From the sequence record EF517027.1: 566 nt of DNA, one strand, 5' to 3'. The translations under genes and the position numbers were made by a program. This DNA comes from a phage. This document shows positions 2-566 of this stretch, one piece after another. Position 1 is the first letter of the stretch. Each line of letters starts with the position of its first letter. The notes under the pieces are model-generated. The model was not told the DNA's origin. It worked only from the letters and a program-made list of their open reading frames with translations, and ran no database searches.

Positions 2-106
2 TGGGAAAAAGAAAACCCACCAGTACAAGCAACTGGGTGTATAACTTGCTTAGAGAAAGATGACCGTTATCCACACACACCTGTAACAAAGGAGCTAACG
101 ATATGA
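2..106 (+). CDS. 5'-truncated ORF in the +2 frame, probably the N-terminal part of the same gene 1.7-like protein, displaced by a frame change and ending at TGA 104-106
   Basis: Frame 2 is open from position 2 to TGA 104-106 (34 codons: WEKENPPVQATGCITCLEKDDRYPHTPVTKELTI). Its stop overlaps the downstream ATG as ATGA (103-106). Frame 1 is simultaneously open from 64 onward, so both frames are open across 64-103. The start codon is upstream of the window. Confidence 0.45.
   Translation, partial: WEKENPPVQATGCITCLEKDDRYPHTPVTKELTI
49..60 (+). repeat. 12-nt exact direct repeat CTTAGAGAAAGA, copy 1
   Basis: Identical 12-mer at 49-60 and 495-506; flanking bases differ on both sides (48 g vs 494 a; 61 t vs 507 c). 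Confidence 0.5.
73..80 (+). repeat. (AC)4 dinucleotide repeat within C(CA)4CC; candidate slipped-strand indel site
   Basis: Positions 71-81 read ccacacacacc. The switch between the two open coding frames maps inside this tract. Confidence 0.55.
89..94 (+). promoter_or_regulatory. Shine-Dalgarno / ribosome-binding site for the ATG at 103
   Basis: AAGGAG is a perfect match to the core SD sequence, with an 8-nt spacer (95-102) to ATG 103-105. Confidence 0.65.
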
Positions 107-566
107 CCGAACGTGAACAAGAGATGATTATTAAGTTGATAGACAATAATGAAAGTCGCCCAGATGATTTGAATGGCTGCGGTATTCTCTGCTCCAATGT
201 CCCTTGCCACCTCTGCCTCGCAAATAACGATCAAAAGATAACCTTAGGTGAAATCCGAGCGATGGACCCACGTAAACCACATCTGAATAAACTTGAGGTA
301 ACTCCTACAGATGACCAGCCTTCCGCTGAGACAATCGAAGGTGTCACTAAGTCTTCCCACTATATGCTGTTTGGCGACATTGAGGTTATCGAAGTGATTG
401 CTCGTTCAATGACCGTTGAGCAGTTCAAGGGATACTGCTTCGGTAACATCTTAAAGTACAGACTACGTGCTGGTAAGAAGTCAGAGTTAGCGTACTTAGA
501 GAAAGACCTAACGAAAGCAGACTTCTATAAAGAATTCTTTGAGAAACATAAGGATAAATGTTATGC
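103..566 (+). CDS. 1.7: T7-group gene 1.7 protein (nucleotide kinase gp1.7-like), reading frame of the short/internally initiated form; 3' partial, frame still open at window end
   Basis: ATG 103-105 lies 8 nt downstream of AAGGAG (89-94). Frame 1 is then open for 154 complete codons to position 564 plus 2 nt, with no stop; frames 2 and 3 are full of stops downstream of 106. Translation: MTEREQEMIIKLIDNNESRPDDLNGCGILCSNVPCHLCLANNDQKITLGEIRAMDPRKPHLNKLEVTPTDDQPSAETIEGVTKSSHYMLFGDIEVIEVIARSMTVEQFKGYCFGNILKYRLRAGKKSELAYLEKDLTKADFYKEFFEKHKDKCYA. Identification as T7 gene 1.7 is from memory of the protein and gene order, not from a search. Confidence 0.8.
   Translation, partial: MTEREQEMIIKLIDNNESRPDDLNGCGILCSNVPCHLCLANNDQKITLGEIRAMDPRKPHLNKLEVTPTDDQPSAETIEGVTKSSHYMLFGDIEVIEVIARSMTVEQFKGYCFGNILKYRLRAGKKSELAYLEKDLTKADFYKEFFEKHKDKCY
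495..506 (+). repeat. 12-nt exact direct repeat CTTAGAGAAAGA, copy 2
   Basis: Identical to 49-60. Here it encodes L-E-K-D in frame 1 (codons 496-507); copy 1 encodes L-E-K-D in frame 2 (codons 50-61). Confidence 0.5.
563..566 (+). CDS. Possible start of the next gene (gene 1.8-like in T7 order), overlapping the 3' end of the 1.7-like ORF; only the first 4 nt are in the window
   Basis: ATG 563-565 is in a different frame from the 1.7-like ORF and is preceded by AAGGA (550-554) with an 8-nt spacer. The nearer ATG 558-560 has only a 3-nt spacer and is a poorer candidate. Overlapping start/stop is typical of T7-group early genes. The body of the gene is outside the window, so this cannot be confirmed. 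Confidence 0.3.

Follow-up and report, generated by a model that had tools for sequence, protein, structure and literature searches.

The 566-nucleotide stretch of phage DNA investigated here (EF517027.1, one strand, 5' to 3'; called the window throughout the text) carries gene 1.7 of phage T7, with the long isoform of the gene broken by one extra CA. It is an ordinary new frameshift allele of this well-known gene, like N-terminal lesions that had already been deposited, and represents neither a novel gene arrangement nor a recoding signal. With a probability of roughly 0.8, the allele arose by a slippage gain of CA, which became fixed through drift in a T7 line after mutagenesis, whereby the long gp1.7 was abolished and the internally initiated short form was left. 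For annotation, the locus should be described as a gene 1.7 that has been disrupted and whose sole plausible product is encoded by an internal open reading frame (ORF) of 155 codons, and not as two novel genes.

The CA tract and the reading frames of gene 1.7

The two open frames from which the analysis started were reproduced by six-frame translation. Frame 2 was found open from window position 2 and closed by the TGA at 104-106, frame 1 was open from 64 to 566 behind a TGA at 61-63, and both were open across 64-103. Translation of frame 2, in the phase of position 2, yielded WEKENPPVQATGCITCLEKDDRYPHTPVTKELTI. The tract suspected as the site of the frame break, CCACACACACC or C(CA)4CC, is present in a single copy in the window at 71-81, and it was absent from 200 of 200 dinucleotide-preserving shuffles of the window. 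By itself the 40-nt double-open stretch means nothing; what lifts the observation beyond chance is the homology to gp1.7 on each flank of the tract. Joined together, the peptides of frame 2 and frame 1 gave a continuous gp1.7 as proposed in the earlier note, consisting of residues 9-34 and, from nt 82 onward, residues 35-195. The note had also described T7 gene 1.7 as one ORF of about 196 codons with an N-terminal region resembling the frame-2 peptide. Both points were accurate, as the gene is a single CDS of 591 nt (196 codons plus stop, 8167-8757 in AY264774) and 25 of 26 residues of the peptide are identical to T7 gp1.7 residues 9-34.

A megablast search of the window against 50,697 phage records matched 143 records, with wild-type T7 genomes as the best matches at 97.5% identity. 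Window positions 2-566 (565 nt) were aligned to 563 nt of T7, annotated as gene 1.7 and gene 1.8. This pairwise alignment begins at nt 24 of gene 1.7 and contains the extra CA as its sole indel; the aligner put the gap at 72-73, a placement which is arbitrary within the CA repeat. Two kinds of lesion had been considered beforehand, a 2-nt expansion or a 1-nt loss. The alignment bore out the expansion (T7 TATCCACACACCTG versus window TATCCACACACACCTG) and rejected the loss, and inspection of the T7 reference revealed (CA)3, as suspected, against (CA)4 in the window. A continuous 196-residue frame for the long isoform was consequently not found, since with the 2 additional nt at 71-81 the upstream frame stops at 104-106. 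Apart from this, window and T7 gene 1.7 share the same place upstream of gene 1.8, the internal Shine-Dalgarno sequence and ATG, the DUF3310 domain and the assignment to PHROG 2585; they differ by the extra CA at codons 32-34 and by 9 missense changes, 8 of which fall within the short-form ORF. The start of gene 1.8 was found on the 3' side, and the gene 1.6 side lies beyond the window. Coordinates of all features are summarized in the table.

Features of the window, with positions counted from its first letter
Feature	Position	Strand	Remarks
5' part of gene 1.7, original frame	2..79	+	Long-isoform codons 9-34; A23T at nt 44; from the alignment
C(CA)4CC tract, frameshift lesion	71..81	+	One CA unit above T7 C(CA)3CC
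Out-of-frame tail PVTKELTI and stop TGA	80..103 and 104..106	+	From translation and codon comparison with T7
A_AAG tetramer, upstream frame	88..91	+	A -1 slip would restore the gp1.7 frame
Shine-Dalgarno sequence AAGGAG for the internal start	90..95	+	7 nt 5' of the ATG; unchanged from T7
Internal short-form gp1.7 ORF	103..566	+	T7 residues 42-196, 155 codons; last codon and stop beyond the window end
DUF3310 (PF11753) domain	343..531	+	80.8 bits versus 81.5 for T7; Pfam gathering cut-off 24
Gene 1.8 start codon	563..565	+	Overlaps the gene 1.7 end as in T7; T7 gene 1.8 at 8750

The shorter tract, (CA)3, was found in T7, in the T7 isolates K, K115, P and P82, in the mutant T7_290S and in the relatives ESh3 and WW2, and the corresponding CACATA of pO111 has T7 length. 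All compared T7 records and relatives keep gene 1.7 in a single frame, with the exception of T7_290S, which has a 1-nt deletion of its own. A genuine two-gene arrangement, in which a true upstream gene ends at the TGA 104-106, had been named beforehand as the case that would speak against a broken gene; it was seen in no relative examined and was rejected. Among the 50,697 phage records, no T7 record exceeded 97.5% identity, as a variant differing only by (CA)4 would have done. The 33-nt context with (CA)4 had no match in viral, genome or metagenome contig collections, and neither the predicted 155-residue product nor the predicted 42-residue product had an exact match in a collection of 15 billion proteins.

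Translation of the broken long isoform had been expected to give a short N-terminal peptide with the scrambled tail TPVTKELTI. The short truncated peptide was retained in our analysis, the tail was corrected to PVTKELTI; it comprises 8 residues and not 9, because the codon following His33 continues to encode the native Thr (ACC>ACA). The window begins 3' of the first 23 nt of gene 1.7, and thus of its start codon. Given an intact start codon there, the product of the long isoform would be a peptide of about 42 residues, native through Thr34 and then continued by PVTKELTI. The N-terminal extension shows a Cys-x2-Cys ... His-x-Cys pattern, GCIACLEKDDRYPHTC (window 59-106, T7 gp1.7 residues 21-35), which is conserved across T7, ESh3, pO111 and WW2. 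This pattern resembles a small metal-binding knuckle, and its last Cys is lost through the frameshift.

The N-terminal extension in homologues and in other T7 mutants

Two protein alignments of gp1.7 homologues were evaluated, in both of which Met42 of T7 is an invariant column. The annotated proteins of the Klebsiella phages K5-4 and IME1309 (Przondovirus), K1F (Kayfunavirus), phiYeO3-12 (Teetrevirus), vB_EcoP_B (Vectrevirus) and Staphylococcus phage BE21 start at this column, and so did every homologue examined beyond the closest T7 group. N-terminal extensions were found in four of the aligned proteins and in no others, with a length of 41 residues in T7 and ESh3 and of 24 residues in pO111 and WW2. 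Since the internal start of T7 coincides with the protein start in other genera, the 41-residue extension is an add-on specific to the closest relatives of T7, and the internal start corresponds to the ancestral start of the family. The surviving ORF of the window is thereby the counterpart of the whole protein in most related phages. Like this ORF, the genes of K1F, phiYeO3-12, K5-4, IME1309 and vB_EcoP_B start at the Met42 equivalent; in these phages they follow gene 1.6 directly. Unlike the window, these phages are without an upstream 42-codon remnant ORF, and the short form is their native one.

Comparable losses of the long isoform were found in two complete genome-reduced T7 mutants. In T7_290S (MZ375290), a G run has lost 1 nt at window position 35; T7_1t1 (OL964748) carries a 100-bp deletion (T7 8164-8263) by which the start codon was removed. 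For both, the annotated gene is exactly the 155-codon ORF. They thus resemble the window in the loss of the long isoform and the retention of the internal ORF, while the lesions differ. The G:C>A:T missense load of the window is also absent from both of them: T7_290S shows one substitution versus T7 over this stretch (window position 141), and the translation of the 155-codon ORF of T7_1t1 is identical to wild type, unlike that of the window. The N-terminal extension has apparently been lost in at least three independent laboratory lineages. Furthermore, three nucleotides (AAG) of the N-terminal extension are deleted in frame in the isolates K and K115, at the equivalent of window positions 9-11; the deletion in isolate K is further evidence that the extension tolerates change. 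gp1.7 was described as non-essential under standard laboratory conditions (PMC9712115), and viable T7 with a reduced genome is reported with this gene among those removed or disrupted (PMC9825161).

Substitution spectrum and origin of the allele

Besides the extra CA, 13 substitutions distinguish the window from T7 (positions 1, 19, 44, 129, 154, 218, 293, 352, 363, 374, 386, 511 and 535). Read in the direction from T7 to the window, 12 of the 13 are G:C>A:T and one is A>G, an excess in one direction with a binomial p of 4e-4 given the base composition. At 11 of the 13 sites every aligned outgroup carries the T7 base, and the state found in the window is the derived one there. Nine substitutions (69%) are missense, compared to 66.8% expected for random G:C>A:T changes in the stretch, and purifying selection on the stretch was thus not detectable. 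A 5' purine was found at 9 of the 12 mutated G positions, which is suggestive of an alkylation context, although the positions are too few for significance.

For comparison, the full genome of isolate K (AY264775) was aligned with wild-type T7. The two differ by 423 substitutions (1.07%); G:C>A:T changes make up 393 of them (93%). In the annotation of isolate K, the non-essential genes 4.7, 5.7 and 5.9 appear as no more than 'similar to' features. Isolate K and the window therefore resemble each other in a G:C>A:T-dominated spectrum and in disrupted dispensable genes. Nevertheless, isolates K, K115, P and P82 (AY264775-8) share no substitution with the window and hold gene 1.7 in one frame; the window could therefore not be placed among these lineages. 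Over this stretch the four isolates show 7-8 changes versus 13 in the window. A number of 13 changes per 566 nt is about twice the mean of isolate K and is reached in 1.4% of the 566-nt windows of its genome. Such a high local density would fit a lineage that is independent and was mutated more heavily, or a local lack of constraint on the gene. Isolates K and P reportedly stem from nitrosoguanidine mutagenesis in the Bull laboratory (Bull et al. 2003, J Mol Evol), and nitrosoguanidine has been applied to T7 populations. Judged from the spectrum alone, the origin of the window looks like a chemically mutagenised laboratory lineage. The synonymous changes at positions 1 and 19 correspond to the base of a natural relative, Shigella phage ESh3. 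They are probably homoplasies at third codon positions, but they are the sole hint against a purely laboratory origin.

According to the explanation which we prefer, a T7 derivative would have passed through a heavy mutagenesis of the alkylating-agent type, with a signature like that of isolate K and isolate P, whose genomes were deposited together with wild-type T7 (AY264774-8). Replication slippage on (CA)3 at codons 32-34 would then have added one CA unit. Ribosomes coming from the normal gene 1.7 start would leave the kinase frame after Thr34, add the eight foreign residues and stop at the UGA, and the intact AAGGAG together with the AUG at 103-105 would allow synthesis of the 155-residue short form, either via independent initiation or via termination-reinitiation. 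As the gene is dispensable in laboratory culture, frameshift and missense changes were apparently fixed without selection. We regard it as very improbable that the frameshift was favoured, for instance through loss of the Cys/His-rich extension, and not fixed by drift. The change would then have led to the ancestral short form, preceded by a 42-codon leader and made by termination-reinitiation, to which -1 slippage at A_AAG might add traces of the full-length protein.

Sequencing is known to produce erroneous indels in short repeats, and (CA)4 had no counterpart in T7 records or in the contigs of the viral, genome and metagenome collections. The extra CA could therefore be a sequencing or assembly error, and the real phage could possess an intact gene 1.7 of 196 codons. 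This is unlikely, since a +2 error in a dinucleotide repeat of four units is atypical and homopolymer errors are generally far commoner. The sequence around the tract is moreover rich in mutations that look real and are distributed neutrally. In such a lineage a dispensable gene can be expected to become disrupted, as the three disrupted genes of isolate K illustrate, and independent lesions occur in the same N-terminal region of two other T7 mutants. The substitution spectrum also bears on a natural T7-like phage as the source of the window, with the frameshift as a natural return to the short architecture of other genera. Most homologues are indeed short and begin at the Met42 equivalent, the extension differs in length even within the group of close relatives (24 residues in pO111 and WW2 against 41), and the ESh3 base is present at positions 1 and 19. 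However, if a conserved gene had diverged naturally by 2-3%, most differences should be synonymous and should go both ways, whereas here 92% of the changes are G:C>A:T in one direction, matching the spectrum of T7 isolate K, and the 69% missense changes equal the random expectation. As nothing like the window was found in the phage, viral-contig, genome and metagenome collections either, we assign a quite low probability to a natural origin.

Finally, a -1 ribosomal frameshift at A_AAG could join the two frames, giving a near-native full-length protein in useful quantity (…YPHT-PVTK-GANDM…, junction peptide YPHTPVTKGANDM). The tetramer is located within the overlap of 64-103, where its phase suits a -1 slip back into the kinase frame. 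Of the tetramers compared in E. coli, A_AA.G is the one most prone to shifting, ranking first only in combination with a strong pseudoknot (PMC4066793). Tetramers without a downstream pseudoknot reached 0.147% versus a background of 0.112% (Sharma et al. 2014, PMC4066793). In the window, the codon before A_AAG makes no heptamer, folding predicted no stable structure at the right distance downstream, and an Rfam search of the window gave no match. The two-frame arrangement results from a recent mutation and is found in no relative, and so it cannot be an evolved signal. A functional frameshift is for these reasons extremely improbable, and any leak at A_AAG is expected to stay at background level. 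The candidate for a programmed -1 frameshift site was rejected, as a tetramer alone was found, with no heptamer, no structure and no conservation.

The internal start and the surviving short-form ORF

In the alignment with T7, the ATG at 103-105 and the Shine-Dalgarno sequence in front of it are identical, and this arrangement is conserved in ESh3, pO111 and WW2. No further ATG, GTG or TTG is present in frame 1 between 64 and 103. A literature search for an internal start in gene 1.7 turned up no paper. The ORF starting at this ATG is 95% identical to T7 residues 42-195 and matches PHROG 2585 'nucleotide kinase' with E = 2.4e-69 over its residues 1-154. The earlier note had concluded that only the internally initiated form is left. 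This is well supported by the intact Shine-Dalgarno sequence and ATG, by the starts of the homologues and by the two T7 mutants, from which we infer continued expression of the short form. The stop of the upstream frame overlaps the internal start as ATGA (103-106). This overlap came about by chance through the +2 shift and mimics a translationally coupled gene pair; since ATGA is a classic termination-reinitiation layout, synthesis of the short form should be preserved.

Eight missense changes versus T7 are located in the short-form ORF (G59S, P80L, P105L, P125S, D132G, A136V, A178T and L186F). P80L, P125S and L186F hit positions that are otherwise uniform among the aligned homologues; P105L, A136V and A178T lie at naturally variable positions. 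No solved structure for the mapping of these changes was found. The mutagenesis-type spectrum and the neutral missense load, neither of which the earlier note had noticed, raise doubt about whether the short form is still active, and its eight changes may have cost it some or all of its activity. The mass was computed as 22,184 Da for the full gp1.7 and as 17,711 Da for the form starting at Met42. A value of 17,782 for the short form lies about 71 Da off the computed one and was not relied upon. Wild-type T7 reportedly makes two gp1.7 species with similar kinase activity. PMC11897194, citing Tran et al. 2012, attributes dTMP/dGMP kinase activity to T7 gp1.7. If available, the source phage of the window could show whether the short form alone supports kinase function and phenotypes that depend on gp1.7, such as dideoxythymidine sensitivity or activation of the defence protein Avs5.

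Several further searches had no outcome for the window: counts in promoter and terminator scans stayed inside the range of shuffled sequences, Tandem Repeats Finder reported nothing, and NCBIfam holds no model for the gp1.7 family. A weak hairpin was predicted at 44-100, in which CGUUAUCC just 5' of the CA tract pairs with the region of the internal Shine-Dalgarno sequence and the CA tract itself lies in the loop. With the insertion, the predicted unpaired probability of the Shine-Dalgarno region rises slightly, from 0.32 (T7) to 0.47 (window), a small difference in a weak structure.
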